Source: Candidatus Amesbacteria bacterium RIFCSPLOWO2_01_FULL_48_25
Lineage (GTDB): Bacteria; Patescibacteriota; Microgenomatia; CAZETR01; Amesbacteraceae
Assembly (NCBI GenBank): GCA_001773695.1
Contig: MEXN01000001.1
Coordinates: 41,903 to 105,902 of the forward strand
Direction of reading: 5' to 3'
Length of the DNA stretch: 64,000 nucleotides
Position numbers and translations under genes: made by a program. Of the stretch, positions 17,432 to 60,225 are shown in pieces (positions within the stretch are counted from its first letter, which is position 1; each line of letters starts with the position of its first letter). The notes beneath the pieces were generated by a model. It saw only the letters and a list, made by a program, of their open reading frames with translations, had not been told where the DNA came from and searched no databases.

Positions 17432-17442
17432 TCCGAATCTAA

Positions 17443-17471: not shown

Positions 17472-17605
17472 CCACGATTACCTTGCTTTATAGGTGCTCT
17501 AGGACACGCCCGACACCAAGTTGATTAGATTTAAAAGCAAAGTCCTCATGAATTCAAACCACCCTCGAAAGGTAATCCTGATATTACCTTCCCCTTCCCT
17601 CCCTG

Positions 17606-17908: not shown

Positions 17909-17940
17909 GGCTATATTTTAAAATCCCTTCCAGTCAACTC

Positions 17941-20491: not shown

Positions 20492-20504
20492 CTAAAACTA
20501 TCCA

Positions 20505-20741: not shown

Positions 20742-20992
20742 ATATCTGTTTTTAAGCTCTTCCGTTTCTGTTCTCCAACCCGGAAATCTCCCTCTCGAGT
20801 CCCTCCACCATATCTTTATAAACCATAAATTCCGTATACCGCAGTTCGGAAAGAGAATTCTCGTGCCGCACGCCCCGGAATTTTCTCTTGGCCTCCAAAT
20901 ATTTCGGCTTATATTTCGCCAGCTGCTCCTCCAAATATTTCAGCCTCGTCTGAGTGTCCATACCCCATTTTAACCCTCCGACCAACAGTAAC

Positions 20993-21235
20993 CTACTGCC
21001 TAAAAAGCAACACACCCAAAAGGCGAGCCAACACCGACTCTCTTGGATTTACACGCATCCAATATCCCCTACGAACCCTATCTACTACTCCCCTCATGTG
21101 ACATTGGGTACAACTAAATTCTCTGCCCGCCAGCCCTTCCGCAGCTTTCTTCTTCAATATCTCAGGCAACGGACAATCGCTCTCTTGTTGACAACCCACA
21201 ATTACTAATGGCACTCCTAACCTCATTTCTATCAT
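20993..21235 (-). CDS. Hypothetical small Cys-containing protein (80 aa; C..C...C..C.H zinc-ribbon-like)
   Basis: CQQESDCPLPE...CTQCHMRG. It sits just after the bidirectional terminator that follows the 16S. Confidence 0.3.
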   Translation of the reverse strand: MIEMRLGVPLVIVGCQQESDCPLPEILKKKAAEGLAGREFSCTQCHMRGVVDRVRRGYWMRVNPRESVLARLLGVLLFRQ

Positions 21236-21261
21236 ACTCAGATTATATCAATAACAAGGCC

Positions 21262-21291
21262 AAAAAACCCGCCAAATAGGCGGGCTTTTTT
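21262..21291. terminator. Bidirectional intrinsic terminator AAAAAACCCGCCAAATAGGCGGGCTTTTTT
   Basis: Perfect 6-bp GC stem flanked by an A6 run and a T7 run, located about 180 nt past the 16S 3' end. Confidence 0.75.
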
Positions 21292-21470
21292 GCTTGTACT
21301 CTAAAAAGTGGTAGGAAATATAAGTAGCGGGAAACTGCTTTTGACGTGTGCTGCTTCCCCTACCTGCGGGTCCCGTTATTTTAATGTGGACGGTTTCCAA
21401 TGACCACAGGGTGATTTCCACTACGGCTCTGAAAAAATTAATTTTCTAAGCCTACCGTGATTAACTCCTA

Positions 21471-22965
<1,495 letters not shown>

Positions 22966-33094: not shown

Positions 33095-34156
33095 TTGACA
33101 AAAAGTTCCCTTGTTTTTGACATGTCTTTGACATCCACCAGTTTCGCCCAAAATCTTCCGCAGGATTTTTATTATCCCCAACTGGCAAAGGAAGTCCTGG
33201 ACAAGCTCTCCCTGTACGAAAATGTCCTCGTCGGTGGCATTTATGGTTGCGGCATTCACACTTTTCTTGATTGCTTCACCGCCCTCGCCCAACAGTCCCC
33301 GGCATTCAACTCCATCTCCATTCTCGAATCGACCAAGCCAATAAGCTCAATCAAAAAAACCACCGGTATATCAGGGAAAAAGCTTGTCGTTATCCACACC
33401 TTCGAGCAGATAGCTCATCCAAACAATTATCTCGAAAAACTTCACCGTCTCCGTCTGCCAGATCCGTCACTGCTCACATATCTAGTCATTTCCGATCACA
33501 CCGTAGTAACCCGACCATCACAATACTTCGCCACTACCACCGCTTTTTTCAACTATCGATTCCTCGTCACCCCTTTCGATCCTGCCCTCACCCACCGGAT
33601 GATCGAAATCGACACGCAATTCTTTGGCTGGAAAGTCCCCAAAGACCTCATCGATCAAATCTACACTCTCAGCGGTGGAGTCCAAAGGCTTACTAAGCAC
33701 ATCTGCAAGCTCACCCACAAAAACCAATCATCTATTCCCAGTACTGAAAAAATACTCGCCGACCCCTCAATCGGCTTCCAGCTCAAGATGCTTACCAACA
33801 TCCTCTGTCAGTCACCTTCACCCGCTCTCCACACACTGGGAATCACCGATCACAAAGGCCAAATCAAGTCAAAGCTCCTCCAGACATACATCCAGGATCA
33901 CTTCCGAACCGACGTCGCCAATTACTTCCCCACTCTTTCCGCCCTAGAGGGGAACCTCTTTGCGCTCCTTTATCAAAATCTGGATTCTCTCATCACCCTC
34001 GATCGAATCGGCGACGTAATGGAACTTCTGGGTCACGATTTCTCCCCCTGGGCCATTTACAAACTCATCTCTCGCCTCAAACTCAAAATAGCACCCCAAT
34101 TTACTATCAAATCATTCAAGAGTCGCGGCTATTTACTCTCCAAAGCGCTACACTAG
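33095..34156 (+). CDS. Hypothetical protein (353 aa)
   Basis: Long plus-strand ORF with its own promoter; no motif recognised. Confidence 0.5.
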   Translation: MTKSSLVFDMSLTSTSFAQNLPQDFYYPQLAKEVLDKLSLYENVLVGGIYGCGIHTFLDCFTALAQQSPAFNSISILESTKPISSIKKTTGISGKKLVVIHTFEQIAHPNNYLEKLHRLRLPDPSLLTYLVISDHTVVTRPSQYFATTTAFFNYRFLVTPFDPALTHRMIEIDTQFFGWKVPKDLIDQIYTLSGGVQRLTKHICKLTHKNQSSIPSTEKILADPSIGFQLKMLTNILCQSPSPALHTLGITDHKGQIKSKLLQTYIQDHFRTDVANYFPTLSALEGNLFALLYQNLDSLITLDRIGDVMELLGHDFSPWAIYKLISRLKLKIAPQFTIKSFKSRGYLLSKALH

Positions 34157-37026: not shown

Positions 37027-38112
37027 TTATTTTTTCAGAAAATATTTTGCCGCCTTAGTCGACCCTCTCTTAACTATCACTCCTTTTTGCAGCAGATATT
37101 TAAACTCCCGCAAAATCGTGTCTTCGGATACCATAGACAACATTTTCCTCGCCTCGGCCATTGTAATTTGCCCGTTGCTGTTTAAATACTCGACCAGCTT
37201 CATCTGCCGCGGCGACAGCGCCACCTGCTGCCCCACCCTCTCTTTAATTTTTATGTCGACAGATAACTCCTTCACTTTCAGCTTTATCCGTGTCAATTCA
37301 TCAGCCAGTGCCTTGGTAAAAACAGTCAGCCAAGCCGTCAAATCCCGGTCTTCCAGCCTAGGGGCCAGGTTAGACACCTCCATCAAAGCCCCGAAGTAAT
37401 CATCCGCATGCTGGTCAAAGTATTCCTCCAGGGCAAAAAATCTCCTGATGTCGTACCCTTCCCGATGCAGCATCAGCGTTGCAAACGCCCTAGCTGTCCG
37501 TCCGTTACCCTCCGTAAACGGGTGTACCGCCGCCACCACATAATGAGCCACCCCAGCCCGCAAAATCGGGTGTTCCCGCCCCCCCAGTTCGCTATTTATA
37601 TACCGGAAAAAATCATCCATCAGATACGGCACTTCCATAGCCAGGGGAGGCCGGAAACCCACCTCCCCCGTCACCGAGTTTCTCAAAACCACTTGCACCT
37701 GCCGGTACTTGCCCACCTGCTCAGCCGGCACAATTTTATCGACAACCAGCCTGTGGATCTCCCACAACTCCTCGCGCGTATACGCATTCACCCCACTCTT
37801 TTCCAAATACTCCAACACTTTCCTATAATTAATTACTTCCTGCACGTCCCGTTCTCGGGCAGCCACTCCCTCGGCAGCCGCTTCAGCCGGCGTCTCCACT
37901 TCCCGCTCCAAAATAATCTTCGCCTCTCCCAAGCTTAAATCATTGCCTTCCAAAGCAGTCCCATAATGCACCGCCCGCAGTCTGGCATCATCCCGGAACT
38001 TTGCCTCCCACATAGGCACCAGCGGCGCATTTTCAATTACTTCCCTGGCCGCCTCAATCTGCCCAATGTTCTTCAAAATATCGGTGATAATGATATATTT
38101 AGGTGTATACAT
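37027..38112 (-). CDS. Fic-family protein (AMPylator/Doc family) with C-terminal winged-helix
   Basis: HPFTEGNGRTARAF matches the Fic core motif HPFx[DE]GNGR. The probable start is MYTPKY at 38112; the listed N-terminal extension is translation of the leader element. Confidence 0.8.
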   Translation of the reverse strand: MYTPKYIIITDILKNIGQIEAAREVIENAPLVPMWEAKFRDDARLRAVHYGTALEGNDLSLGEAKIILEREVETPAEAAAEGVAARERDVQEVINYRKVLEYLEKSGVNAYTREELWEIHRLVVDKIVPAEQVGKYRQVQVVLRNSVTGEVGFRPPLAMEVPYLMDDFFRYINSELGGREHPILRAGVAHYVVAAVHPFTEGNGRTARAFATLMLHREGYDIRRFFALEEYFDQHADDYFGALMEVSNLAPRLEDRDLTAWLTVFTKALADELTRIKLKVKELSVDIKIKERVGQQVALSPRQMKLVEYLNSNGQITMAEARKMLSMVSEDTILREFKYLLQKGVIVKRGSTKAAKYFLKK

Positions 38113-38130
38113 TCCTAAAAATTCGGTGCA

Positions 38131-38205
38131 GGCGAGATGCAAAATGCGCCCGCAGCCGGACGCCGGCAAACGCCAGGCAGTCGAGGACGTAATTTTGCGC
38201 TCGCC
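38131..38205 (-). promoter_or_regulatory. Conserved GC-rich leader element copy 1 (structured RNA or operator candidate), about 25 nt upstream of fic
   Basis: It shares the core GCAGCCGGACRCCGGCAAACGMCCAGGCAGTCGAGSACG with 58421..58493. Outer arms GGCGAG/CTCGCC and GCAAAAT/ATTTTGC bracket the core. Confidence 0.45.
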
Positions 38206-38252
38206 GAACCGACCCTGCGTTAATTCTACGGTTAATATGCGGGAAATACAAT

Positions 38253-49495: not shown

Positions 49496-49876
49496 TCAAT
49501 ACGGCACAATCAAGTCCAAACGCGGAATACCCCTAAAATGCCTGCTGTTTTTCGTAACTAACTCCTCCCCTCTCACCATCGCCGTCGCCCCAATAAATGA
49601 ATCTATTATCCCCAAACTCTGAGAAAACCAATATTGGGAAAAAATTTCCCCCGCCACAACTGATATCTCCCCGTCCACCTCCACTACCTCTACCGGTCCC
49701 AACGCTTTCAATTGGCGCATCAACTTATTTAACTCCACCATTGATTTAGCTCCTTTTATCAATTCCATCACCGTCAACCTGCTAACCCTGATGGATCCCT
49801 GCACACCCAAAATATAATCAGCGGCTCTTGACTCTCCCCTAATCACATCCACCAACACTCCCGTGTCAACCACCAT
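49496..49876 (-). CDS. PIN-domain ribonuclease toxin (VapC-like); start MVVDTG
   Basis: An N-terminal acidic Asp (VVDTGVLV) and later conserved D/E residues in a PIN fold of about 125 aa. Confidence 0.65.
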   Translation of the reverse strand: MVVDTGVLVDVIRGESRAADYILGVQGSIRVSRLTVMELIKGAKSMVELNKLMRQLKALGPVEVVEVDGEISVVAGEIFSQYWFSQSLGIIDSFIGATAMVRGEELVTKNSRHFRGIPRLDLIVPY

Positions 49877-50132
49877 AGCTTCGCATCTCTTCCTTTCGTC
49901 TCCACTCATCCACAATGTCCACCGAGGACTTACTTGCCGGCCACCTGTCTTTCCACATCCCAAAAACCTCAGGCAAGATCCTTCTTTTCACTATCTTTTT
50001 CTCCTTTCTTACGGGGGATATCCGGGCCATCACTATCCTGTTTTTAGTCACCAGAAACTCTTCCCCAGCGTATGCTCGGTTCAAAATTTGTAAGAAATCC
50101 TGCCTAGCCTGGGAAGCGTTAATCTGTGTCAT
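49866..50132 (-). CDS. Antitoxin, Phd/YefM-like
   Basis: SQARQDFLQILNRAYAGEEFLVTKNRIVMARI matches the Phd/YefM N-terminal fold. It lies upstream of and overlapping the PIN gene. Confidence 0.55.
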   Translation of the reverse strand: MTQINASQARQDFLQILNRAYAGEEFLVTKNRIVMARISPVRKEKKIVKRRILPEVFGMWKDRWPASKSSVDIVDEWRRKEEMRSYGG

Positions 50133-50156: not shown

Positions 50157-50732
50157 CTACTTGTCAAGCAGTCTCTTCTCATACTTCAACTCTCCCCTGT
50201 CTTTATATACTTCGACCCCAGCCAACCCTGTCCTGACCATCTCCTCTTGCACCAGTTTCCCCTTTTTGCACCCCTCGGGGTTTTCTTTTAACCCCTCCCG
50301 CGAACGGTTATAAGTCAAATGCATATAATCTGCAGGTAAAAACTTAGGATTTTGACACCCTACCCATACCCAGGCCAAAATTCGTCCAAACTTATCATCC
50401 AGATACCTGTCGTACTCCAACCAAACTTTTTTATTTTTTATTAGATCACCTAATTTATTTTTGCTTTCTTCGTCATTCGTGGGAGCGTTGATCCCAACCA
50501 TTCTTACTCTCACCCCGTTTTGCAGCTCAAACGTATCCCCGTCAGTTATTACTCTTACTACCCCGCTATCCGGAAAGGCCTGTTTATTTTTATAAATATC
50601 AGGCCCCAAATCCCGCCAGTTTTTCACTCCCAACACTGCCACCGTGACTATAATCCCCGGTATCAGCACCTCTTTCACTCCAATCTTTCGTAGCCAGTCA
50701 GCCGTCAATCTCTTGGGCGTTATTTTTTTCAT
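50157..50732 (-). CDS. Thermonuclease (staphylococcal nuclease, SNase-like), membrane-anchored
   Basis: VVRVITDGDTFELQNGVRVRMVGINAP matches the SNase core (DGDT...R..GIDAPE), with an N-terminal TM. Confidence 0.75.
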   Translation of the reverse strand: MKKITPKRLTADWLRKIGVKEVLIPGIIVTVAVLGVKNWRDLGPDIYKNKQAFPDSGVVRVITDGDTFELQNGVRVRMVGINAPTNDEESKNKLGDLIKNKKVWLEYDRYLDDKFGRILAWVWVGCQNPKFLPADYMHLTYNRSREGLKENPEGCKKGKLVQEEMVRTGLAGVEVYKDRGELKYEKRLLDK

Positions 50733-51360
50733 CCGGAATCACCACCTCCCCCACCATTCCCACCATCAATCCCTCCCAACTATCCAAACTCGCATCAACT
50801 ACCAATTTTTTCCCATCCGGCCTTGGCAAACCCGTCTTCCCGGCTAACTCTTTACCATTGATTTTTACCATCACCTCCCCTGGTTCCATAAACCCGTCCA
50901 GTTCTGTCTCAAATCTCAAAGCGTCCAAATCCAATATTTTAAAGGCGTTCGAGGCTGGACTCACATTCAGTCCGACTCTATTTCCCCCATCGTCCACCAC
51001 CGTCCCATTTACCGGCGATATCAACGTCGCCTGATCCATTTTGGCTTTAGCGATTTCTACTTCTTTGACGCTGGCATTCAATTGCGCCTGCTCAATCTGC
51101 TTAGCATACTTGGTCAGATCATCACCCGGATTAGGATTTCTCTTGGCAAATATCTCAAACTCAGCTCTTTTCCTTTCGTAATCGGCCAGCTGTAAATCCA
51201 GCTCCATCTGTAACATCTTGGTATCCAAAGCCGCCAGCACTTCACCTTTCTTAACCGTATCCCCCCTCTTCTTCTTCACCACCGCCACCTTTCCCGAAAA
51301 CGCATACCGCACCTCAATCTCATCAGCGGTCACCATCCCCAACCTTCCCTTCCCAACCAT
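50698..51360 (-). CDS. HlyD-like periplasmic adaptor fragment/short paralogue
   Basis: Lipoyl-like and coiled-coil segments similar to membrane-fusion proteins; no N-terminal TM. Confidence 0.5.
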   Translation of the reverse strand: MVGKGRLGMVTADEIEVRYAFSGKVAVVKKKRGDTVKKGEVLAALDTKMLQMELDLQLADYERKRAEFEIFAKRNPNPGDDLTKYAKQIEQAQLNASVKEVEIAKAKMDQATLISPVNGTVVDDGGNRVGLNVSPASNAFKILDLDALRFETELDGFMEPGEVMVKINGKELAGKTGLPRPDGKKLVVDASLDSWEGLMVGMVGEVVIPDEKNNAQEIDG

Positions 51361-51440
51361 CTACTAAATATTACCACTCCCGCGAGGACTTCATGAAATC
51401 AATTTTTGGAATCCGCAAAGCCAGCTTCGAATGGTATAAT

Positions 51441-51446
51441 AAGAAT
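51441..51446 (+). promoter_or_regulatory. -10 box TATAAT about 10 nt upstream of the GC-rich ORF-free region
   Basis: cttcgaatggTATAATaagaattg. Confidence 0.35.
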
Positions 51447-51454
51447 TGTTCTTT

Positions 51455-51745
51455 CAAAAAGACGTGCGGGGTAGTGTAGAGTTGCACGGAAGGCTAGTAG
51501 TATGGGCCCCGCCGACAGTAATGTCGGTGTGCAAACTTGGCTATATCGGTGGACACCCCGGTGTAATACCGGGACAATACCGAGGCAATCCCGAAAGGGC
51601 GAGTCCGTAGAGACTAAACGCCAAGTCCCCCCGAAGCTTCATGCGAAGGGGGAATGATATAGTCCGACACTCAAAGTAATTTGAGATTACAGATCAGCAT
51701 AATCTTCCAGGCCGGGCGCGACTCCCGGCCCCGCAACAAGTAAAA
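51455..51745 (+). ncRNA. Unidentified structured RNA candidate (about 290 nt, GC-rich, ORF-free)
   Basis: No ORF in any frame across about 350 nt, and GC markedly above the flanks. Many local hairpins with GNRA-type loops: GCGGGG...CCCCGC, CCGACA-GTAA-TGTCGG, CCGGT-GTAAT-ACCGG, CCC-GAAA-GGG, CTCAAA-GTAAT-TTGAG, GCCGGG...CCCGGC. Confidence 0.35.
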
Positions 51746-51806
51746 TTTAGCTTCAAAAACCGAGAGATGGGAGTGATAGGATCACGCCTGGTGTATAATT
51801 TAACAG

Positions 51807-52178
51807 GTGAAGCTTAAGAAAATTCTGGATAAATTACTCGAAATATACTTTTTGGGAATGGGAGTGTTCTTTGTGTTCGGGTCTGTGGTATCTTTCTTTG
51901 TATTTCTTTCCCAAAAGGTCGAAGTAGGCCTTATAACACCCGTTAAAACCCTAGTATTTGGACTCCTTTTTCTTTATTCAGGTGTTAGTTTAATGAGAAA
52001 GAAAGCCCACGGATACCAATATTGTCTTCTGGCATTGGCGATAGTTTTCCTTGTATCAACCCTGCATAGATTGTTTTTTGTAACAAGTTTCAGATTAGAG
52101 CGGGTGGATTTTAATAACTTACTTTTGTTTGGAATCCCGTTCCTGGTCACCCTCCTCTCGAATAAATTAGAAATATGA
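51807..52178 (+). CDS. Hypothetical membrane protein (123 aa, 4 TM), GTG start
   Basis: Hydrophobic helices; GTGTATAAT lies about 10 nt upstream. Confidence 0.4.
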   Translation: MKLKKILDKLLEIYFLGMGVFFVFGSVVSFFVFLSQKVEVGLITPVKTLVFGLLFLYSGVSLMRKKAHGYQYCLLALAIVFLVSTLHRLFFVTSFRLERVDFNNLLLFGIPFLVTLLSNKLEI

Positions 52179-52195
52179 TCGTATCGGTTTTGATA

Positions 52196-52225
52196 AAAAC
52201 CAGGTTCTGATTTCATCCAACCCCC
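52196..52225. repeat. Direct repeat copy 1 (AAAACCAGGTTCTGATTTCATCCAACCCCC)
   Basis: About 30 nt with 27/30 identity to 53236..53267; it lies immediately 3' of the fic gene. Confidence 0.7.
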
Positions 52226-52228
52226 AAA

Positions 52229-53188
52229 TTAGGTTGACAATTTTCGCTGCCTTTGCCGCCCTTTAACATATCTTTCTATAGCTTCTTGAGTGGCAACCCA
52301 AATGCGCTTTTCCTTGTGTGCTTCGATTTTTCCGAAACGGGCCAAAAGATTGAGATATTTCTTTGAGTAAGGAGTTAAATTTACCAACGAAGACAGTGGT
52401 TGATATTTTTTCCCGGCATCTACTTCGGGAGACAGGGTTTTTAGGTAAATATTCAACGATCGTTCTATCGCTTGGGCCACAAAGCGAATCAACGGAGCAA
52501 GCTTCCCTTTGTCCGCATCTGCCAAAACCCGATAATATTTTTGCCTGTCGTTTTTTAGAATAACCACCAGAGGATAGCCTCTGTTTAGTAAGACAAGGTT
52601 CATAACCAAACGGGCAGTTCGTCCGTTACCATCCACAAAGGGGTGGATGTAAACCAGTTTGTGATGCAGAATAGCCGCGAATTCAACAGGATGGAGCTTT
52701 TGAATATTCTCCCCGGCCCAGGATATCAAATCGCTCATCTCAAACGAAACTTCACTCGAATCCGGTGGTAAATGGTCGGAACCGGTAATCATGACATTGG
52801 TTTGTCTATAACTTCCGGCTTGGTCCGCTTCCGTTTCCCGAACTACCAGCTTGTGCAGGTTTCTGATTAAAACTTCCGAAATTGTTTGTTGGGAGTTTTT
52901 TTCAACTAACTCATAGAGGTAATCCAACGCGTCGTAATGATCACGTGCTTCCAGATGGTCTTTAAGCGGTTTACCCTTGATAGTCAGGCCGTCTTTAATA
53001 ACCCAAGCCGTTTCTTTGAGAGTTAAGGAATTGCCCTCAATCGCGTTGGAATTGTAAGTCATTTCTATGGCAAACTGTTCCCGCAGCTTAGCCACAGCAG
53101 ATGTAGACAACGGTCTTTGAGGGTTAAGTTTGGCCAGTTTTTCATCAATTCTAGCCTGAATTCGAGAGTCTAATATGGTATAGACCAT
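52229..53188 (-). CDS. Fic-family protein
   Basis: HPFVDGNGRTARLV core motif; C-terminal helical domain. Confidence 0.8.
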   Translation of the reverse strand: MVYTILDSRIQARIDEKLAKLNPQRPLSTSAVAKLREQFAIEMTYNSNAIEGNSLTLKETAWVIKDGLTIKGKPLKDHLEARDHYDALDYLYELVEKNSQQTISEVLIRNLHKLVVRETEADQAGSYRQTNVMITGSDHLPPDSSEVSFEMSDLISWAGENIQKLHPVEFAAILHHKLVYIHPFVDGNGRTARLVMNLVLLNRGYPLVVILKNDRQKYYRVLADADKGKLAPLIRFVAQAIERSLNIYLKTLSPEVDAGKKYQPLSSLVNLTPYSKKYLNLLARFGKIEAHKEKRIWVATQEAIERYVKGRQRQRKLST

Positions 53189-53235
53189 ATTTCTTCTTAT
53201 ACCATGTTAAGAACTGGATTGCAAGCAGGTAGTGA

Positions 53236-53267
53236 GAGAAAATAGGTTCTGATTTCATCCAATCCCC
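53236..53267. repeat. Direct repeat copy 2 (AAAATAGGTTCTGATTTCATCCAATCCCCG)
   Basis: Matches 52196..52225; it lies immediately 5' of the fic gene. Confidence 0.7.
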
Positions 53268-53276
53268 GCAACCAAG

Positions 53277-53304
53277 TCAAAACCCGCTTCACGGCGGGTT
53301 TTTT
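53277..53304. terminator. Bidirectional intrinsic terminator AAAACCCGCTTCACGGCGGGTTTTTT
   Basis: GC stem CCCGC/GCGGG flanked by an A-run and a T-run. Confidence 0.6.
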
Positions 53305-53322
53305 AGTCCCTCATCCTAAGGT

Positions 53323-53328
53323 ATAATC
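53323..53328 (+). promoter_or_regulatory. -10 box TATAAT, 11 nt upstream of the tRNA 5' fragment
   Basis: cctaaggTATAATcaaggctaaatcGGCTACG. Confidence 0.4.
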
Positions 53329-53339
53329 AAGGCTAAATC

Positions 53340-53358
53340 GGCTACGTAGCTCAATGGT
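53340..53358 (+). repeat. Duplicated tRNA-Met 5' segment (acceptor and D-arm, 19 nt: GGCTACGTAGCTCAATGGT)
   Basis: 17/19 identical to positions 1-19 of the intact tRNA at 54095; tRNA-like sequence does not continue beyond it. Confidence 0.7.
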
Positions 53359-53426
53359 GTATTTTAAAAACGTTGGTTGTAAGAAATGCGAACCGATGAT
53401 ACAATAAACCATAGATATCGTTTTCT

Positions 53427-54104
53427 ATGGCAAAATCGTACCTTAAAAACAGGGCCATCGAGCTTCGTAAATCCGGCCTGAGTGTCAAGAATATCGCTGA
53501 ATCCCTAGGAGTCTCCAAAAGCACCGCAAGTTTGTGGGTCAGAGACATAGTCCTTTCTCTTGAACAAGAGGAGTCTCTAAAACAAAGATCCTTAAAAGGA
53601 GCGGAAAAGGGTCGCACAATCGGATCGCTAGTTCAAAAACAAAGACGGCTCAAACTGCTAGAAACAGAGAAAAAAATCGGGATAAAAGAGGTGGGGCAAC
53701 TCACCAAAAATGAGCTTAAAGTCGGCGGCTTAGCTCTGTACTGGGCCGAAGGATCCAAAAAGAACCGCAGAGTCGAACTTTGCAACTCGGATCCCTTCGT
53801 TATCAAGTTCTTCATCAACTGGCTCATTAATACTTTCGACATACCCATAAAGGAACTCTCTTGCTATGTCGGTATTAATGAGGCTCACAGGGCTAGAGAA
53901 GTCAAAGTGAAAAAATACTGGTCGCTCTTAACGAAAATTCCCCTCACCAGCTTCACTAAAACTAGCTTCAAAAAGTATCCCCTCAAAAAAGAATATCCAA
54001 ACTTTGACGAACACTATGGCACACTTTCAGTTCGTGTGCGGAAACCGGCACGAATTTACTATAAAATCCTAGGTGGAATCCACGGACTGTCCATGGCTAC
54101 GTAG
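53427..54104 (+). CDS. HTH + LAGLIDADG-like putative homing endonuclease (225 aa)
   Basis: N-terminal HTH (LRKSGLSVKNIAESLGVSKSTASLWV) and a LAGLIDADG-like motif GGLALYWAEGSK. The stop codon TAG lies within nucleotides 8-10 of the downstream tRNA (GGCTACGTAG). Confidence 0.45.
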   Translation: MAKSYLKNRAIELRKSGLSVKNIAESLGVSKSTASLWVRDIVLSLEQEESLKQRSLKGAEKGRTIGSLVQKQRRLKLLETEKKIGIKEVGQLTKNELKVGGLALYWAEGSKKNRRVELCNSDPFVIKFFINWLINTFDIPIKELSCYVGINEAHRAREVKVKKYWSLLTKIPLTSFTKTSFKKYPLKKEYPNFDEHYGTLSVRVRKPARIYYKILGGIHGLSMAT

Positions 54105-54167
54105 CTCAGCGGTTAGAGCGCACGCTTCATAAGCGTGATGTCGCTGGTCCGATCCCAGCCGTAGCCA
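54095..54167 (+). tRNA. tRNA-Met (anticodon CAU; elongator type or tRNA-Ile-lysidine, not initiator-like)
   Basis: GGCTACGTAGCTCAGCGGTTAGAGCGCACGCTTCATAAGCGTGATGTCGCTGGTCCGATCCCAGCCGTAGCCA is a complete cloverleaf. G1-C72 and the absence of three G-C pairs in the anticodon stem argue against an initiator. T-loop TCCGATC. Confidence 0.85.
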
Positions 54168-54431
54168 CATGTCCAAAGATATTCTGTTCCGGATCCGCCA
54201 ACCCCAAAAACCAGGGCCAACAACTTTTCTCAATGGTATCCCATACTCACGAATAAGACACGCATACAATCTAAGCAATCAAGCCCCTGTTGAAGAATCA
54301 CCCTCCTCAATAACCCTTTTCGAGAGAGTTGTTACTAGTAAAACCAGTTGGATAAGGCCATGTCGCGTAATTACGCCACGCGAATGGCTGGTATCTCAAT
54401 TAATCAAACTCTTTCCCAACGAAAAAGTGGT

Positions 54432-54776
54432 CTAAATCCCCACATACAACTCCCACCATTTGCGCCAATTTGCCTCGGTATTGGAATTTGTGGCTTGAGA
54501 TTTAAGATTTGGAGGACTTGGTACAATCACAACAACCTCTCCTAGCTTTCCCAAGCCTAGTTTCTCCCTCGCCTCCCGCTCCACAAAATCATCCGATTTT
54601 ACCTCCTCTAACTTCTGCTGCAGCTGCTTGTTTTCAACCTCAGCCGCCGCCACTTCAGACTGGGCTCGTTTCACCCTCTCCCCCGCCCGGATTAGTCTCC
54701 ACACATTCCCCCCCAGCCTCACCGTGACACCAATACTCAATATCAATACCAGCCATCTAACCCATCTCTTTCCCAT
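54432..54776 (-). CDS. Septum formation initiator (FtsB/DivIC-like)
   Basis: Single TM plus a coiled coil (RAQSEVAAAEVENKQLQQKLEEVKSDDFVEREAREKLGL). Start at MGKRW. The C-terminus contains a repeat-derived insert. Confidence 0.5.
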   Translation of the reverse strand: MGKRWVRWLVLILSIGVTVRLGGNVWRLIRAGERVKRAQSEVAAAEVENKQLQQKLEEVKSDDFVEREAREKLGLGKLGEVVVIVPSPPNLKSQATNSNTEANWRKWWELYVGI

Positions 54777-54803
54777 ATTTCCATTGTACCAGGCACGACT
54801 CTC

Positions 54804-55742
54804 TTGCAATCTCCACCCCAACCAGGTACAATTCATCAATTAACCTGTCCCATAGTCAATTTACAAATGGCCTCACTTCCCGACCCAATTAGCTTTGATA
54901 CTGCCCTGGAGAAATTTACCAGCCACCTTAAAAGTCAACACCGCTCTTCCTCCACCTCAATAGCCTATATCGGCGACCTGGCCCAACTCCGCTCCTACCT
55001 GGAAACTCACCGCATTACCCAAGCTACTACCGTCCAAACCCAGCACTTAGAGGAGTTTGTCACCCAGCTGGGAGAAAAAAACTACACTCCCAAGTCTATA
55101 AGCCGCAAGATCAACTCACTCAAGACTTTTTTCAAATTCCTCCATCAAACCGGCCTCCACAACTCCAACCCCGCCTCTCCCCTCACCCACCCCAAATACA
55201 CCACTCCCCCACCCCGCATATTAACCCAAGAAGAATACTCCAAGCTGCGCGACGCCTGCCGACTGGATATTAGGGTTTGCGCCATCGTCGAGATCCTTCT
55301 CCAAACCGGCATGCGCATTTCCGAGCTGGCCAACCTCAGGCTGGAAGACATCAAGAAAAACGAGCTTTTCATCCGCCCTCTAGAAAACAATCCGGAGCGT
55401 TCCATCCCCTTAAACCGCCAGGCTACCATCGCCATTCAGAACTACCTGAGCCTGCGTCCCACCACTGCCGATACCCATCTTTTCGTCACCAAAACCGGCC
55501 GGCCGCTACTGATTAGAAATATCAGAACCAGTATCGATCGCTATTTCAAAAAGGCCGGCCTGAGCAACATCAAAGTCAACGATCTTCGGCACACCTTTAT
55601 AGCCCACCAGCTAAGTAACGGCGTCCTGCCCGAAGTCATCCACAAACACGTCGGTCACCGCCGGATCAGTTCCACCGAAAAATACCTCGAATTTATAAAG
55701 ATCACCGCCACTACCACCTCCTCCAAACTCCTGGAATTGTAA
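54804..55742 (+). CDS. Tyrosine site-specific recombinase (XerC/XerD/integrase family); likely start MASLPD near 54870
   Basis: N-terminal SAM-like core-binding domain; catalytic R...HxxR...Y (LRHTFIAHQL, HVGHRRISSTEKYLEF). Confidence 0.8.
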   Translation: MQSPPQPGTIHQLTCPIVNLQMASLPDPISFDTALEKFTSHLKSQHRSSSTSIAYIGDLAQLRSYLETHRITQATTVQTQHLEEFVTQLGEKNYTPKSISRKINSLKTFFKFLHQTGLHNSNPASPLTHPKYTTPPPRILTQEEYSKLRDACRLDIRVCAIVEILLQTGMRISELANLRLEDIKKNELFIRPLENNPERSIPLNRQATIAIQNYLSLRPTTADTHLFVTKTGRPLLIRNIRTSIDRYFKKAGLSNIKVNDLRHTFIAHQLSNGVLPEVIHKHVGHRRISSTEKYLEFIKITATTTSSKLLEL

Positions 55743-55751
55743 ATTAACTAA

Positions 55752-55889
55752 TTAACCAATCACCTTTCTAATCTTCTTCCGTTCTTTGCTCCTAAACGCC
55801 CAGATCCCAACTAGCAGTATCAGTATCACCACAATCGTCCATCCCCCCGCCTTAAATAATTTAAACGCCAGCTTCCAAAAACCCAACAT
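55752..55889 (-). CDS. Small membrane protein (about 45 aa from MLGFWK)
   Basis: One TM plus a basic tail; the longer listed ORF abuts the tRNA. Confidence 0.25.
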   Translation of the reverse strand: MLGFWKLAFKLFKAGGWTIVVILILLVGIWAFRSKERKKIRKVIG

Positions 55890-55949
55890 CTTATAGTCCA
55901 AAGACAAATCTGTCAGCGATTGGGTTATGAAATGAGCCAAACGTATCAT

Positions 55950-56024
55950 TGGTGACTCGACGGGGAATCGGACCCCGATTACGGGGATGAAAGCCCCGTG
56001 TCCTAGCCGTTAGACGATCGAGCC
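55950..56024 (-). tRNA. tRNA-Glu (anticodon UUC), CCA encoded
   Basis: The minus-strand read GGCTCGATCGTCTAACGGCTAGGACACGGGGCTTTCATCCCCGTAATCGGGGTCCGATTCCCCGTCGAGTCACCA has anticodon loop CTTTCAT and T-loop TCCGATT. Confidence 0.8.
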
Positions 56025-56043
56025 GTAGAAGCTAATTTTACCA

Positions 56044-58389
56044 TTACAGCTTCGCTCTCGCCGCAATCTCACTCTCGACCAGGCGCACATCCCGACCATA
56101 TTTCAGTCTCGACAGCTGCTTTATAGCTTCGGCCAGCTTCTCATTGCGCATCCCCCGCTCAGCCGTTATATCCTTAGTCACGTCCATAGTAAACGGCGTC
56201 ACCGGCTCGTTTCTCACAATAGTTTTGATAAACACGTTAAACCTCTCAATATTCAGTAAGTCCGCCTCGTTAAAAGTAGGCGTATACTCATGCTGCAAAT
56301 AGTTAGCGTCCCCCACTCCCACCCGGAAGGAAACCAAAGTTCCCACATTCCCAAACACCGCGTTTTTCACCTCGTCCTCCATCTGAGAAGTAAACTGGTT
56401 GGCTACGATCAAATTCAGCTTGTATTTCCTAGCTTCCGACAAAATAGTAGCAAAATCCGGCGTGGCAAAATTCTGAAACTCGTCCACGTACAAGTAAAAC
56501 GGCCGTCTGTCTTTTTCTAAAATATCAGCTCTACTCATAGCCGCAGACAAAAGTCTGGGTACCAATACCAACCCCAGAAAATTACTATTTTCCTCTCCCA
56601 ATTTTCCCTTGGACAAATTGACAATCAAAATTTTCCCCTCGTCCATCACCGCCCGGAAATCAAATGCCGATTGAGGCTGGCCGATAATATTTCTTATCGT
56701 CCGGTTAGTCACGAACCGGCCAAACTTGGACACAATATAATCCAGCACTTCGGATTTATGAAAGTCGGAGGTTTGGGCAATCTGGTCGGTCCAATACCGC
56801 CTCACAATTGGGTCTTTCACCCGCGGCAACATCTCCTGGACAAACTCAGGTCGCTGCAGCGCCTGCACCACCTCGATAAACGTTCCCCCCGGCACTGCGT
56901 CCATGACGGTCAACATTGCATTCCTGATCGCGTGTTCAAACCTCGGCCCAATAATCCCGGTTTTATGTGGATCGTACAGCTTGTACATCATCCCAATCAC
57001 GGCATTAGTAGCCATATGCCGCTCCTGGTCGGACCTGGCCTCGATCAAGTTCAACCCCATCGGCCGCTCCGTATCCGACGGATCAAAAAAGACCACATCC
57101 TCCGCCCGCTCGGGCGGGATATAACCAAGCAAGTCCTCTGCTAGATCATGCGGGTCGATGACACAAACTCCCTTCCCCGCCCGGATATCCTGGAGAATCA
57201 TCGTCTTCAAAAATTCCGTCTTTCCCGTCCCCGTCCGCCCGATAATATATATGTGCCGTTCCCGGTCCATATCTGAGGTATAAACCGGCCGTGTCACTCC
57301 TCTAAAAACTGACTTGCCTAAATACAGCCCTTCCGTAGGTATCCCCTGCGGCGCCGGCGCCCGCTTGGCATTCAGCCAAAAAATATGCGGCGTCTCCACG
57401 GATTTATTCGGGAAGTGGTAAATAGTAGCCAGCTCCTCGGAATTTAATACCGTCCAATTTCCCCACCAGACCATCGGCTGATACCTGTAGATAAAGTCCA
57501 CCATAAAGCTGGTTTTCAGTCGGATTTTCTTGCCCTTAAATCCATTCAAATCCCCATTAAACTGCTCAAACGCCGCCTTAATATTGGCCAAGTGCGCACG
57601 GGCCGAGTCACGGTTAACCGAAGACACCACAATCCGTATTGTCGTGGCAAATCCGTTTTTAGACACTTTGTTATCCACTGCCTCCAGAACTTTAGGGTCC
57701 ACTTTATAACTGGCCTTCTCCGGATCGGACTCGCTCTTTTTAGTCTTTCCAATCCACGTCCTACCTTTTTTCTTCCATCCCGCCTCGGCCGGTGCCAACA
57801 CTATCTGCACGTGCGCTCCCTCCCCATCTCCCATTTTAGCCAGCGCCGAGGTCACAGCCGCCATGGGATCCGTCGTCAAATTTTTAAATATCTGGATAGG
57901 ATAATACGACGCGTTTCGTAGTATCAGCCAAGCAAACTCCACACGGCCGTCAACTGTAAATATATTCGGCTCCTCCACCACCTTAATTTCAGCCCCCGAA
58001 TACCCGCCATGGATTTGCTTCTCTACCAAGTCCCGCAATTTCTCAGGCAGCATGATATAAAACCGGATGTCTTCCTTTCGGGCCAATATTTCAAAAGAGA
58101 TATGTGGCTGCACCTGCAAAAATGAAAACCACCCAAACGGCCCCAATCCCCCCCTCTTGATCGAATACAGGCTGCTAATTATCTGTTCCATGGCATCAAT
58201 TTTTATTTCGTTATCCCGCGGCACCGCCACCTGCAGGCACACCATCTCCAGACTCTTATCTTCCCTGTCCCGGTGCCGGTACCACACCACCAGCAAATAC
58301 CCCACCAATGTCATCAGCACCACAAACACACCCAAAATAACGACCAGTAATACTATCGGCCCAATCAAACTCGCCACATACGGATTCAT
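56044..58389 (-). CDS. VirB4/TraG-like (AAA_10/DUF87-type) membrane-anchored P-loop ATPase, type IV secretion/conjugation-like
   Basis: N-terminal TM; Walker A IIGRTGTGKTEF followed by VIDPHDLAEDL (the hDP+GE-like signature of VirB4/TraC/TraG ATPases); Walker B LYVDEFQNF. Confidence 0.65.
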   Translation of the reverse strand: MNPYVASLIGPIVLLVVILGVFVVLMTLVGYLLVVWYRHRDREDKSLEMVCLQVAVPRDNEIKIDAMEQIISSLYSIKRGGLGPFGWFSFLQVQPHISFEILARKEDIRFYIMLPEKLRDLVEKQIHGGYSGAEIKVVEEPNIFTVDGRVEFAWLILRNASYYPIQIFKNLTTDPMAAVTSALAKMGDGEGAHVQIVLAPAEAGWKKKGRTWIGKTKKSESDPEKASYKVDPKVLEAVDNKVSKNGFATTIRIVVSSVNRDSARAHLANIKAAFEQFNGDLNGFKGKKIRLKTSFMVDFIYRYQPMVWWGNWTVLNSEELATIYHFPNKSVETPHIFWLNAKRAPAPQGIPTEGLYLGKSVFRGVTRPVYTSDMDRERHIYIIGRTGTGKTEFLKTMILQDIRAGKGVCVIDPHDLAEDLLGYIPPERAEDVVFFDPSDTERPMGLNLIEARSDQERHMATNAVIGMMYKLYDPHKTGIIGPRFEHAIRNAMLTVMDAVPGGTFIEVVQALQRPEFVQEMLPRVKDPIVRRYWTDQIAQTSDFHKSEVLDYIVSKFGRFVTNRTIRNIIGQPQSAFDFRAVMDEGKILIVNLSKGKLGEENSNFLGLVLVPRLLSAAMSRADILEKDRRPFYLYVDEFQNFATPDFATILSEARKYKLNLIVANQFTSQMEDEVKNAVFGNVGTLVSFRVGVGDANYLQHEYTPTFNEADLLNIERFNVFIKTIVRNEPVTPFTMDVTKDITAERGMRNEKLAEAIKQLSRLKYGRDVRLVESEIAARAKL

Positions 58390-58420
58390 ATATTCATGAT
58401 ATCAAAATAACAAAGGCACA

Positions 58421-58493
58421 GGCATGCTAGCAAAGTCGCGCGCAGCCGGACACCGGCAACGACCAGGCAGTCGAGCACGACCTTTGCGCATGC
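58421..58493 (-). promoter_or_regulatory. Conserved GC-rich leader element copy 2, about 32 nt upstream of the ATPase gene
   Basis: Same core as 38131..38205, with compensatory outer arms GGCATGC/GCATGCC and GCAAAG/CTTTGC. Confidence 0.45.
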
Positions 58494-58507
58494 CGAGCCT
58501 GATAACT

Positions 58508-59029
58508 CTACTTCTTAGTTTTTACAGGTATCGGCATTCCCAATTTTTTCATCTGCCGGATGCACCACACTGCCAACCACCTGATCGCCTCCCACACTTT
58601 GTGATGTAACCCCTGGGTAATCTGGTCATCGGTCAGGGGTATGGTAACTTTAGGGTTTTGGGGGTTGGCCGATCCCATCAGTACCTGCCCCACATAGTCG
58701 TCCGTCCCAGCTTGTCCCAGCTCTGCCTCCTTCTCCACTTTTTCTATCCACCCCTCCCGCTCAAGTTTCGGCTCCACCTCCGGCTCTGCCGGTACTTCCT
58801 CCACCTCTTCAATAACTCTCTCCTTTCTTATTCTCCCAGCAGCGACCTCCAGCTGCTCTTTAAAATGCCCTCCCGCGTTGTACATCGCCTGCGGATCCCA
58901 TTGTTTCTCCTCGTACTCCTCCACATCATCTGCCATACTTGGCACCGGATTGGCAGTCAGCTCATCCAGATCCTGCGCGGCTTGTGGTTTACTTGGAACT
59001 TGTGGCTTGGGATTTGGGATTTGATTCAT
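58508..59029 (-). CDS. Hypothetical acidic protein (173 aa)
   Basis: Glu-rich central region; the N-terminus is encoded by a TTGGGAT/CTTGTGG repeat; no motif. Confidence 0.4.
   Translation of the reverse strand: MNQIPNPKPQVPSKPQAAQDLDELTANPVPSMADDVEEYEEKQWDPQAMYNAGGHFKEQLEVAAGRIRKERVIEEVEEVPAEPEVEPKLEREGWIEKVEKEAELGQAGTDDYVGQVLMGSANPQNPKVTIPLTDDQITQGLHHKVWEAIRWLAVWCIRQMKKLGMPIPVKTKK
58981..59026. repeat. CTTGTGG/TTTGGGA repeats at the 5' end of the acidic-protein ORF
   Basis: cttgtggtttacttggaacttgtggcttgggatttgggatttgattc. Confidence 0.8.
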
Positions 59030-59245
59030 CCCCCCATCTTACCAACTTGACACCCCCAAGAACAAGAAATAACATCTCCTTATGCCTCCCAGCCTTGATG
59101 CACCACAGACTCAAACATCTTTTCCTGACCAACTGGCAAACCCGAGGCTCAGGTCAAAAGCAAGATATGGCCCCATCGGCCACTTGCTAGACCAAGAAAA
59201 TCAGAAAAAGAACCTCGCCCAAGATTCAACTCCACTCTGAAAGAT

Positions 59246-59623
59246 ATGGCCGACCGGATCGCCAACACCAAGCCCTCTGGACTGGACACAACCACAAATC
59301 CCAGCTGGAGTAATAATCCGGAATCTACAATCCAAGAATACGGTGGGTATTACGATTGTTACTATCATGGAGCTACTGAAGAACAAATTTTCCGCGTTTT
59401 CAAAAATAGCTCCTTGGCAGAGGTTTGGAGAAGACCAAAAGAGAACAACCTGGAAAAAAGGCCGGAATGGACTAGAGATCTTCAAACTAAAGGAGCACCC
59501 AACAACAAAATCAAAGTTTGGAGTGAGACCCCCCTCCCCACCCAAATCGCTTTAAACATTGTACACGACCTTGTCACTCAAATCACCCACAAGCCTCCAA
59601 TCCCTCAGAAGGTTAGTCTTTAA
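59246..59623 (+). CDS. Hypothetical protein (125 aa); the antisense 59201..59545 ORF is rejected
   Basis: The plus frame has gene-like composition; the minus frame is Phe/Ser-rich and repetitive. Confidence 0.3.
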   Translation: MADRIANTKPSGLDTTTNPSWSNNPESTIQEYGGYYDCYYHGATEEQIFRVFKNSSLAEVWRRPKENNLEKRPEWTRDLQTKGAPNNKIKVWSETPLPTQIALNIVHDLVTQITHKPPIPQKVSL

Positions 59624-59697
59624 AGGAGTATCCCTTTAAATCCACCGCATTCAAGCCGGCAATTGACAACACGTACCATTAGATGTACGATATCCAC

Positions 59698-59967
59698 ATG
59701 ACCCAATTAAGTACCACCCTCACCGCCAGTAATGCTCGCTCAAATTTCTACCAAATCCTTGCCAACGCAGTCGACAATTTAAATCGATTCACAATAAAAA
59801 TACGCGGCAAGGGCGATGCAATCATCATGTCAAAAGAAGAGCTCGAAAGCTGGGAAGAGACACTGGATATCTTATCCAACAAAAAACTTGCAAACAGTTT
59901 ACGAAAGGCCCTGAGATCCAAAAAAACCTATACCCAAGAAGAAGTTTACAAAAAACTGGGGTGGTAA
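59698..59967 (+). CDS. Antitoxin Phd/YefM family
   Basis: LTASNARSNFYQILANAVDNLNRFTIKIRGKGDAIIMSKEELESWEETLDIL matches the Phd/YefM fold. Confidence 0.7.
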   Translation: MTQLSTTLTASNARSNFYQILANAVDNLNRFTIKIRGKGDAIIMSKEELESWEETLDILSNKKLANSLRKALRSKKTYTQEEVYKKLGW

Positions 59968-59976
59968 TACAAACCC

Positions 59977-60225
59977 GTGAAACTAATTTTCAAGTCTGAG
60001 GCTGAAAAGAAGATGGCCAAGATTGGAGCCAGGGATATACCCAAAATCAAACGAAAACTCGCCTCGCTATTAGATGATCCTCTCTCCGGCAAATTGCTAT
60101 CGGGAGAATTTTCAGGCATTCGCAGTATACGAGCCTGGCCACTGCGTATACTTTATTCTTTTAATCCAAAATCCCAGACAATCACCATCGAAGCCGTCGA
60201 CTACCGCGGCCAGGTCTATAAATAA
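59977..60225 (+). CDS. Toxin, RelE/ParE (YoeB/Txe-like) family; GTG start
   Basis: 82 aa; ...RAWPLRILYSFNPKSQTITIEAVDYRGQVYK has the RelE-like C-terminal pattern. It is immediately downstream of the Phd-like gene. Confidence 0.65.
   Translation: MKLIFKSEAEKKMAKIGARDIPKIKRKLASLLDDPLSGKLLSGEFSGIRSIRAWPLRILYSFNPKSQTITIEAVDYRGQVYK

Follow-up and report, generated by a model that had tools for sequence, protein, structure and literature searches.

Does a tyrosine recombinase that stands beside a conjugation-type ATPase and several tRNA genes mark the remains of a mobile element, or can such genes simply belong to the chromosome that carries them? The question is raised by a span of 7.7 kb (51.4-59.1 kb) in a 64-kb window of DNA from Candidatus Amesbacteria (contig MEXN01000001.1; Microgenomates, Candidate Phyla Radiation (CPR)/Patescibacteria), the window being the whole stretch analysed in this work. 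An initial annotation had joined the genes of this span into one degraded conjugative or integrative element. That grouping is wrong. The recombinase and the ATPase are part of a gene order that is widely shared across this bacterial group, not of a decayed conjugative element; the span is probably two things, namely an inherited chromosomal backbone and a mosaic, about 2.7 kb long, of small inserts at two tRNA(CAU) genes. CPR genomes are tiny and the routes by which they gain accessory genes are poorly understood. Here the genes that look like conjugation and integration functions turn out to be ordinary, conserved parts of the chromosome, which calls for caution against over-calling CPR mobile elements from domain names alone, and the two methionine tRNA genes appear to be a reproducible hot spot for very small units: an intron, an endonuclease-like gene and recombinase-less single-gene cassettes with defence- or toxin-type cargo. 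The cassette array at the initiator tRNA, which carries no recombinase, is the part most deserving follow-up.

Gene content was established by listing of open reading frames (ORFs), tRNA scanning and Pfam/NCBIfam searches, and guanine-cytosine (GC) skew was computed per gene and along the window. The comparison set consists of 80 loci around ATPase homologues in species-representative genomes, taken among the matches listed and mostly of 40-66% identity, to which close Amesbacteria contigs were added via identical-protein look-ups; individual loci are cited below by number. The 43 wider Microgenomates loci are those in which the flank downstream reaches 4 kb or more and the ATPase is at least 55% identical, and in them an Xer gene was counted if it lay on the opposite strand within 6 kb of the ATPase gene.

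The backbone genes of the span, together with the tRNA next to the ATPase, are the following.

54095-54168, plus strand: elongator-type tRNA-Met(CAU), from the tRNA scan, at the same position in L081, L083, L085 and L092
54432-54839, minus strand: DivIC/FtsB-like septum protein (Pfam DivIC, 40 bits), whose true start is probably an internal Met near 54776
54804-55742, plus strand: Xer-type tyrosine recombinase (Phage_integrase domain, synteny)
55950-56024, minus strand: tRNA-Glu(UUC), from the tRNA scan
56044-58389, minus strand: membrane-anchored DUF8128 and coupling-protein-like P-loop ATPase of 781 amino acids (Pfam, synteny)
58508-59029, minus strand: acidic partner ORF of 173 amino acids, preceding the ATPase

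The order acidic ORF, ATPase, tRNA, Xer (on the opposite strand), DivIC and tRNA-Met is also found in the Amesbacteria loci L081, L083 and L085, with a PduO gene adjoining the acidic ORF in L081 and L085, whilst L092 keeps the Xer-DivIC-tRNA-Met portion; every close relative with enough flank has the same order. Among the 43 wider Microgenomates loci, Xer is present in 24 and DivIC stands next in 22. Synteny of the block in relatives, which the initial annotation itself had named as the finding that would speak against a degraded element, thus holds for most of the span. The tRNA genes, earlier taken as the bounds of an element, fare no better in that role, as both tRNA-Met and the tRNA just 3′ of the ATPase belong to the gene order conserved among the relatives compared. 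In nearly all of these (L001-L085) the tRNA after the ATPase is tRNA-Ile(UAU), a tRNA rare in bacteria; in the window its place is taken by an unrelated tRNA-Glu(UUC), and the 64 kb contain no tRNA-Ile(UAU). In the compact loci L013, L039 and L061 the tRNA(CAU) pair is directly followed by tryptophanyl-tRNA synthetase (TrpRS), a tRNA-binding protein and FtsH, with nothing in between. The backbone, as we see it, would be vertically inherited in Microgenomates and would run PduO, acidic ORF, DUF8128/coupling-protein-like ATPase, tRNA, Xer-type recombinase (opposite strand), DivIC/FtsB, elongator tRNA-Met, initiator-type tRNA(CAU), TrpRS, tRNA-binding protein and FtsH.

GC skew separates this backbone from the inserts. 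Its mean over the window is -0.33 and its local extreme -0.58, with no change of sign over the 64 kb, so that the replication terminus lies outside the window, and it is largely independent of gene orientation (a Mur ligase gene on the plus strand has -0.34). Backbone genes on either strand have it too (Xer, plus strand, -0.38; ATPase -0.27; DivIC -0.48), as does every flanking gene (-0.27 to -0.53), including a PIN/Phd pair, an SNase gene and an HlyD-like fragment. Values of +0.07 to -0.04 are shared by an intron-bearing tRNA, a 123-amino-acid ORF (+0.07), a Fic gene (-0.01), a spacer and a gene with a helix-turn-helix (HTH) domain, and near-zero skew occurs only at about 51.46-54.11 kb, whose content is present or absent among relatives. 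These roughly 2.7 kb are accessory DNA. The idea of a mobile region therefore survives for about 51.46-54.11 kb, with its skew near 0, variable content, repeats and a match to the SoFic defence model, and falls for the rest of the span; the skew check that had been proposed divides in the same way, native for recombinase and ATPase and near 0 for the accessory stretch.

The ATPase is a membrane ATPase as first described, whilst the VirB4 likeness then given to it does not hold. It has one N-terminal hydrophobic segment serving as anchor, a P-loop (Walker A at residues 384-391, Walker B at 632-637), a DUF8128 region taken from precomputed Pfam annotation, a DUF87 match, and coupling-protein Pfam domains above gathering score (TrwB_AAD_bind, 28.0 vs 20.5; TraG-D_C, 26.0 vs 22). 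It resembles coupling proteins (TraD, VirD4, TrwB, CedB), not VirB4, by weak matches: the best sequence matches in the PDB, TrwB and DotL, have E-values of 0.003-0.03, and the curated NCBIfam coupling-protein cut-offs are all missed, the best being SXT_TraD with 53.9 bits vs 366. Its family suggests a membrane-anchored, probably hexameric NTP-driven translocase. The more than 5,800 homologues include Amesbacteria-type proteins of 75-87% identity, and it is because these are named from Candidatus Amesbacteria genomes that the window was assigned to Microgenomates; orthologues of Doudnabacteria, Saccharibacteria and WWE3 are 41-47% identical. Full-length distant homologues (20-30% identity, the DUF8128 part included) occur in Bacillus phage G, 0305phi8-36 and SPO1-like phages, others in phrog_5156 (295 bits; a PHROG family of unknown function) and on Bacillus, Streptomyces and haloarchaeal plasmids, where 257 of the 308 homologue-bearing plasmids are classed as non-mobilizable. 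A 2025 survey (PMC12102498) reports 5,713 VirD4-like homologues in 2,918 of 3,035 Patescibacteria genomes (about 96%), only 148 of them near virB4, and raises exaptation of these homologues as a possibility. The ATPase described here is one of these near-universal 'orphan' VirD4-like genes of Patescibacteria and no remnant of a conjugative element.

The acidic ORF before the membrane ATPase (31 D+E vs 21 K+R) was correctly seen at the outset. Relatives of it lie upstream of the ATPase in 35 loci (tblastn and jackhmmer) and most other loci with an upstream ORF have a similar low-complexity one in its place, so that a short acidic or low-complexity ORF precedes the ATPase in most loci, including those of Saccharibacteria, Dojkabacteria and WWE3. 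In one Levybacteria genome (L023) the PduO-type adenosyltransferase gene that lies upstream of the ATPase is immediately followed by an AdoCbl-II riboswitch match (8249-8325; 39.8 bits vs a gathering score of 36.5). A different element lies between acidic ORF and ATPase in the window, in the form of an imperfect hairpin repeat of about 110 nucleotides (nt) present in two copies.

58400-58513, minus strand: copy between the acidic ORF and the ATPase
38110-38222, minus strand: second copy, upstream of a second Fic gene (37027-38169)

The two copies are 79% identical and foldable on both strands. This is all that the 'conserved leader element' of the initial annotation amounts to: in none of 85 related loci does the repeat stand upstream of the ATPase orthologue (0/85), it has no Rfam match, and a family-wide regulatory RNA was consequently ruled out. 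Also set aside was the thought that the ATPase, beside Xer and DivIC, is a substitute for FtsK, given that the conserved block also holds the unrelated PduO, TrpRS and FtsH, and that FtsK is mentioned in papers on Saccharibacteria strain TM7x.

The recombinase carries Phage_integrase (PF00589, 104 bits) and an N-terminal SAM-like domain (PF02899, 53 bits). Its true start is probably the ATG at 54867, which gives 291 amino acids, and its orthologues in the same place have 291-292. It scores below the equivalog cut-offs of XerD (161.5 vs 329.6) and XerC (156.6 vs 335) and far below that of the integron-integrase model (67.8 vs 265). Residues R171, R262, H285 and Y294 are present and the R-H-R-H-Y signature is incomplete, the first catalytic His being replaced by Asn (NDLR instead of HxxR), as in all of the 42 orthologues. 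In none of the 43 loci that carry this gene was a second tyrosine recombinase found within 10 kb.

What remains of the span are the selfish or mobile inserts, all of them very small and each probably aimed at one of the two tRNA(CAU) genes. The first of them is a group I intron, predicted to be self-splicing, placed between U33 and C34 of an initiator-type tRNA. The 'ncRNA candidate' of the initial annotation is indeed a real RNA feature and proves to be this intron, inside the tRNA(CAU) gene at 51465-51736 (RF00028).

51465-51495, plus strand: 5′ exon of the initiator-type tRNA(CAU), positions 1-33, ending at U33
51496-51697, plus strand: group I intron of 202 nt without ORF, between U33 and C34 (Rfam RF00028)
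51698-51736, plus strand: 3′ exon of the tRNA(CAU), with CCCCGCAAC, the core that the cassette repeats share, as its last 9 nt

The Rfam match (62 bits vs a gathering score of 50) was placed at 51428-51686. Its 5′ boundary was rejected, being about 68 nt too far upstream when compared with intron-less orthologues and aligned copies. As uninterrupted, near-identical tRNA genes stand at the corresponding place in L081, L083 and L085, the intron junction can be fixed to the nucleotide. ARAGORN missed the split tRNA even in its intron mode and the host tRNA was read by hand from the flanks; once joined, the exons give a 70-nt sequence that ARAGORN calls tRNA-Met(cat). The intron accounts for the failure of standard tRNA finders to detect the initiator tRNA of genomes like this one. 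The same intron occupies the same site in L019, L023, L034, L051 and L070 (six aligned copies with the window), with Rfam scores of 66-81 bits in the four relatives searched (L019, L023, L034, L070). In all six the 5′ exon ends in U, which is paired to a G of the guide, and the intron in G, and the intron's guide 5′-AUGGGCC pairs with both exon ends (GGCU|CAU), from which self-splicing may be predicted. As to the tRNA, a stem xGCGGGG/CCCCGCA is common to all copies (G2-C71/C3-G70/G4-C69), and four orthologues (L019, L023, L034, L070) have CGCGGGG/CCCCGCA-A with a C1xA72 mismatch; a C1 opposite A72 is the hallmark of bacterial initiator tRNA and matches E. coli tRNAfMet. Besides, the T loop of this tRNA (51698-51736) reads CGCGACT and its D loop lacks GG, and three other tRNAs of the window (20420-20492, 54095-54168 and 55950-56024) have C, not the near-universal U, at T-loop position 55 (loop TCCGAYY), whilst the loop of tRNA-Ala is normal.

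Directly 3′ of this tRNA come two single-gene cassettes, each ending in a repeat of about 30 nt that mimics the tRNA 3′ end.

51807-52178, plus strand: ORF of 123 amino acids with several hydrophobic segments, cargo of cassette 1
52186-52225, plus strand: direct repeat A (DR-A), closing cassette 1, with a degenerate core CCCCCAAAT, aligned with copies of L086 and L087
52229-53188, minus strand: Fic protein (Pfam Fic, 81 bits), cargo of cassette 2
53228-53272, plus strand: direct repeat B (DR-B), closing cassette 2 and ending, as does the tRNA-fMet 3′ end, in CCCCGCAAC
53279-53304, plus strand: terminator-like hairpin AAAACCCGC-loop-GCGGGTTTT and then a T run, after DR-B (read from the sequence, fold of -14 kcal/mol; not listed by a consensus scan)

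The 123-amino-acid ORF has no match in Pfam, NCBIfam, PADLOC or PHROG; a TATAAT box (TGTATAAT at 51792) stands 7 nt before its GTG start. The Fic protein has homologues 63-65% identical in Parcubacteria-type CPR, a closer likeness than the 41-47% of the ATPase and its orthologues in Doudnabacteria, Saccharibacteria and WWE3, an N-terminal SNAIEG and an intact HxFx(D/E)GNGRxxR motif (HPFVDGNGRTAR, residues 182-193), and it matches the PADLOC SoFic model PDLC03963 with 116 bits over residues 15-267. The cassette-like character first ascribed to it gains from the 40-nt direct repeats that bracket the gene (52186-52225 and 53228-53267, 83% identical). The repeat consensus, yAGGTTCTGATTTCATCCArTCCCCGCAAC, is, with its approximately 30 nt, as long as the variable-loop-to-discriminator part of the tRNA; the portion that corresponds to the T arm does not pair, and neither attC-type R boxes in the RYYYAAC...GTTRRRY arrangement, nor a hairpin or dif-like dyad, were seen by eye.

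Of 25 related loci, 10 have similar repeats after tRNA-fMet. The same-strand sequence up to 4 kb downstream contains 13 extra CCCCGCAAC cores where 0.34 are expected (P about 1e-16; 25 loci, 90 kb). Copies of the repeat, three each in L081 and L086, one in L087 and two in L091/L092, always lie on the strand of the tRNA, and the layout is clearest in L092, where Xer, DivIC, tRNA-Met and tRNA-fMet are followed by a 134-amino-acid ORF, a repeat, a 179-amino-acid ORF, a repeat, SNase and TrpRS. The 21 nt found 3′ of the tRNA in the window stand after a repeat copy in L086 instead. Extra cores downstream of tRNA-fMet occur as far as the distant Microgenomates L002, L006, L015, L034, L040 and L062, most of them with a GTTCT motif about 20 nt upstream and several with 16-18 nt identical to the resident tRNA. 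A metagenome scan with the exact repeat pattern returned only two near-identical contigs. The units measure 0.3-2.2 kb and usually hold one ORF, the exceptions being two tRNA-end duplications of about 0.1 kb and one 3-kb interval; their cargo is varied (Fic, GIY-YIG, PIN, radical SAM, EEP nuclease, DUF4268, membrane proteins), and no recombinase of their own was found among the units examined. We infer repeated site-specific insertion at the 3′ end of the tRNA by an enzyme acting in trans, such that serial recombination events would each restore the tRNA and push the older junction downstream. The neighbouring Xer-like protein is a candidate for this enzyme and, at this stage, an unlikely one: the hypothesis gains a little from the NDLR that replaces HxxR without exception in the Xer-like family and is weakened by the linkage between Xer and the tRNA pair, which is not specific to loci with an array. 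Should it be true that a host recombinase moves the cassettes, this would be a new route of gene capture.

The third insert would be a unit of 755 bp that entered the D-loop region of tRNA-Met.

53340-53358, plus strand: 19-nt relic of the tRNA-Met 5′ end, 17/19 identical to 54095-54113 (direct repeat search)
53427-54104, plus strand: protein of 225 amino acids with an N-terminal HTH (HTH_23 match) and a possibly LAGLIDADG-like C-terminal domain

The unit carries its own promoter-like site and the HTH/possibly LAGLIDADG-like gene; it also supplies a new copy of the tRNA's first 19 nt, the old one staying behind upstream as the 19-nt relic. The relic sits 755 nt before the intact tRNA gene, the stop codon of the HTH gene lies inside tRNA-Met, and a promoter-like TTGTAA-17-TACAAT with a TG extension (53377-53405) precedes the gene. 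The protein family has about 430 CPR members of uniform length. A homologue of the gene lies between the intron-bearing tRNA-fMet and tRNA-Met in L019, L023 and L070 and adjoins the two tRNAs in L081 and L087, whilst in other loci the tRNAs are neighbours with nothing between them. AlphaFold2 models are confident (pLDDT 87 and 92), and a Foldseek search with the C-terminal domain gives I-DmoI as the best match by probability (0.95), TM-score (0.47) and root-mean-square deviation (2.9 Å), with an E-value of 0.17 and other folds at lower E-values; searches of the full-length protein, by Foldseek and by sequence, gave nothing beyond the HTH. The insertion into tRNA-Met seen in the initial annotation is borne out by the 19-nt duplication. 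A homing-endonuclease-like protein is plausible but unproven, and the unit may move by homing.

The same annotation correctly placed toxin-antitoxin pairs, a thermonuclease (SNase) and a short HlyD-like fragment on the flanks of the span, and its Fic gene, tRNA-Met, tRNA-Glu and tyrosine recombinase are real by Pfam and tRNA scans. The flanking features and one further ORF within the span are the following.

49496-50132: PIN/Phd pair
50157-50732: SNase
50698-51360: HlyD-like fragment of 220 amino acids
55752-55949, minus strand: ORF of 65 amino acids with one hydrophobic segment and no family match (ORF listing, Pfam)
59683-60225: YefM/ParE pair

Between the acidic ORF and the YefM/ParE pair lie about 650 nt (59030-59682) without recognisable gene, where a 125-amino-acid ORF (59246-59623, plus strand) found no match in Pfam and PHROG searches; comparison with L081 and L085 sets this unassigned sequence and the pair apart as a small insertion of their own, lying between PduO and the acidic ORF. 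Farther away, the 16S and 23S rRNA genes (14406-22965) are 4.2 kb apart, with tRNA-Ala, a MacB/FtsX-type permease (17941-19179), a full HlyD-type adaptor (19142-20137) and, on the opposite strand, tRNA-Ile(GAU) in the spacer, and two ORFs of 663 and 353 amino acids (29052-31043 and 33095-34156, both plus), with no Pfam match at an E-value of 1e-5, run opposite to most genes.

Several observations weigh against the account of a backbone with small inserts. The Xer-ATPase synteny extends to only about half of the wider Microgenomates loci, and the distant ATPase homologues on phages and plasmids leave room for an ancient mobile origin of the family. The inner 20 nt of the repeat are unlike the T arm of the resident tRNA, which does not fit a simple duplicated target, and the core of DR-A is degenerate. 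Since no recombinase, circular intermediate or clean empty site was observed for the cassettes, their movement is deduced from repeats and comparison only. LAGLIDADG sequence tests of the HTH protein all failed (Pfam E-values up to 1, PDB sequence and profile searches, hhalign against I-CreI). Finally, Amesbacteria, the window included, have U1-A72 and no mismatch, as does L051, and the three G-C pairs of the initiator anticodon stem are not kept (A29-U41, G30-C40 and G31-U39 in the window), for which reasons the label 'initiator' rests on acceptor stem and orthology.

Do these points revive the element that was first proposed? If the whole of 51.4-59.1 kb were a degraded integrative or conjugative element, with the tyrosine recombinase as its integrase and the 781-amino-acid protein as its transfer ATPase, the TrwB_AAD_bind and TraG-D_C domains with their weak TraD/VirD4 matches, the recombinase and tRNA genes adjoining the ATPase and the plasmid and phage homologues would all find a place in it. 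We consider it highly improbable. All close relatives, and about half of the wider class, keep the recombinase, the ATPase and the acidic ORF in the same order, these genes have native GC skew, and of the 308 plasmids with homologues 257 are classed as non-mobilizable. Moreover, the ORFs scanned in 49.5-59 kb contained no relaxase domain, and a scan of the 20 largest ORFs left in the window yielded neither VirB4 nor any other domain of a type IV secretion system (T4SS). Nor is the block as a whole enclosed by repeats, which bracket the Fic cassette and the HTH gene alone. A different proposal concerns function only and is compatible with an inherited backbone: ATPase and acidic partner could be the coupling-protein module of a dispersed patescibacterial T4SS, whose VirB4 and other components lie elsewhere (near dnaA in Microgenomatia). 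The coupling-protein domains would suit this, as would coupling genes that are often far from virB4 and the presence of VirB4 in 2,417 of 3,035 Patescibacteria genomes, according to the survey (PMC12102498). The curated coupling-protein cut-offs, however, are all missed by a wide margin, and the closest full-length relatives outside CPR are those of Bacillus phages and non-mobilizable plasmids, which makes such a module a possibility of somewhat doubtful standing.

The cassettes, in turn, allow two other readings. In one of them the conserved Xer-type (NDLR) recombinase inserts and excises cassettes in the manner of an integron, with the 3′ end of tRNA-fMet as fixed site and the repeat of about 30 nt as cassette site. 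It is the sole tyrosine recombinase within 10 kb in all of the 43 loci that have the gene, it is linked to the tRNA(CAU) pair across Microgenomates, the cassettes have none of their own, and both its unusual NDLR in 42/42 orthologues, which marks a distinct subfamily, and its scores far under the XerC/XerD cut-offs set it apart. That linkage, however, is also seen in repeat-free loci and so is not array-specific; 291 amino acids leave no space for an IntI-type extra domain, the repeats have neither attC-type R boxes nor a dif-like dyad, and a single Xer for chromosome dimer resolution would be an adequate ordinary role. We hold this reading to be rather unlikely; if true, bacteria with very small genomes would have an integron-like system assembled from other parts. 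Alternatively, the repeats could be decayed duplicates of tRNA-fMet, or signals of 3′-end processing or termination, and the variable genes could have come by homologous recombination through conserved flanks. The repeats equal the 3′ part of the tRNA in length, one of them is followed by a terminator-like hairpin, and natural transformation with flank-mediated replacement is plausible in CPR. Against this, their inner non-tRNA part, AGGTTCTGATTTCATCC, is conserved between genomes with different cargo, partly as far as L002, which argues for selection rather than decay; they sit at cassette boundaries in one shared orientation, and one right-hand flank, found next to the tRNA in one genome, adjoins a repeat in another. 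An origin of this kind is improbable. An inherited backbone carrying small inserts at two tRNA(CAU) genes therefore remains the reading that we prefer, and its parts can be set against systems already known.

The ATPase shares with the orphan VirD4-like homologues of Patescibacteria their domains, near-universality and distance from virB4, and nothing separates it from that set; the passages of the survey (PMC12102498) that were consulted make no mention of the pairing with an acidic ORF or of the Xer/DivIC/tRNA neighbourhood described here. The intron has a counterpart in the tRNA-fMet of Synechocystis, where a group I intron of 655 nt encodes the 150-amino-acid endonuclease I-Ssp6803I (PMC1995217), and group I introns in tRNA genes are mentioned in passing in a metagenome-assembly study that mentions CPR (PMC8172020). 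Both introns interrupt a tRNA(CAU) whose acceptor stem is of initiator type, both do so in the anticodon loop, and both vary in presence among relatives, whereas the one described here has 202 nt, no ORF and a CPR host, and the possible endonuclease gene, which in Synechocystis is inside the intron, is free-standing beside the intron or tRNA in L019, L023, L070 and L087. The possible likeness of the 225-amino-acid protein to the LAGLIDADG endonuclease I-DmoI consists, besides the Foldseek match (not significant by its E-value), of a GLALYWAEG motif at a helix end, with invariant E-G, and of a gene present or absent beside tRNA genes; unlike LAGLIDADG enzymes, it has an N-terminal HTH and a long helix, and is free-standing.

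The Fic protein shares with the SoFic-type defence proteins (PDLC03963) the intact Fic motif and the N-terminal (S/T)xxxE(G/N) and may have a role in defence; it differs from them in riding in a 1-kb cassette bounded by repeats. Tandem islands that target tRNA genes are known as the tycheposons of Prochlorococcus, in which the tRNA is restored and partial tRNA copies are left between stacked elements. The cassettes resemble them in both respects, if integration here indeed restores the tRNA; unlike tycheposons they have no element-encoded integrase, measure only 0.3-2.2 kb, and end in repeats whose inner part differs from the resident tRNA, yet is conserved among genomes. Integrons, for their part, are attC cassette arrays of single-gene units beside a fixed site and a tyrosine recombinase. 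From these the system described here departs in having no IntI-type insertion in the recombinase and no attC hairpin or R box in the repeats, in using the 3′ end of a tRNA as its fixed site, in its short arrays (1-3 units) and in the putative role of its recombinase. What it shares with them is the plan as a whole: single-gene units closed by a site-like repeat, a fixed site, a tyrosine recombinase nearby, and a cargo that includes toxin, nuclease and defence-type genes.

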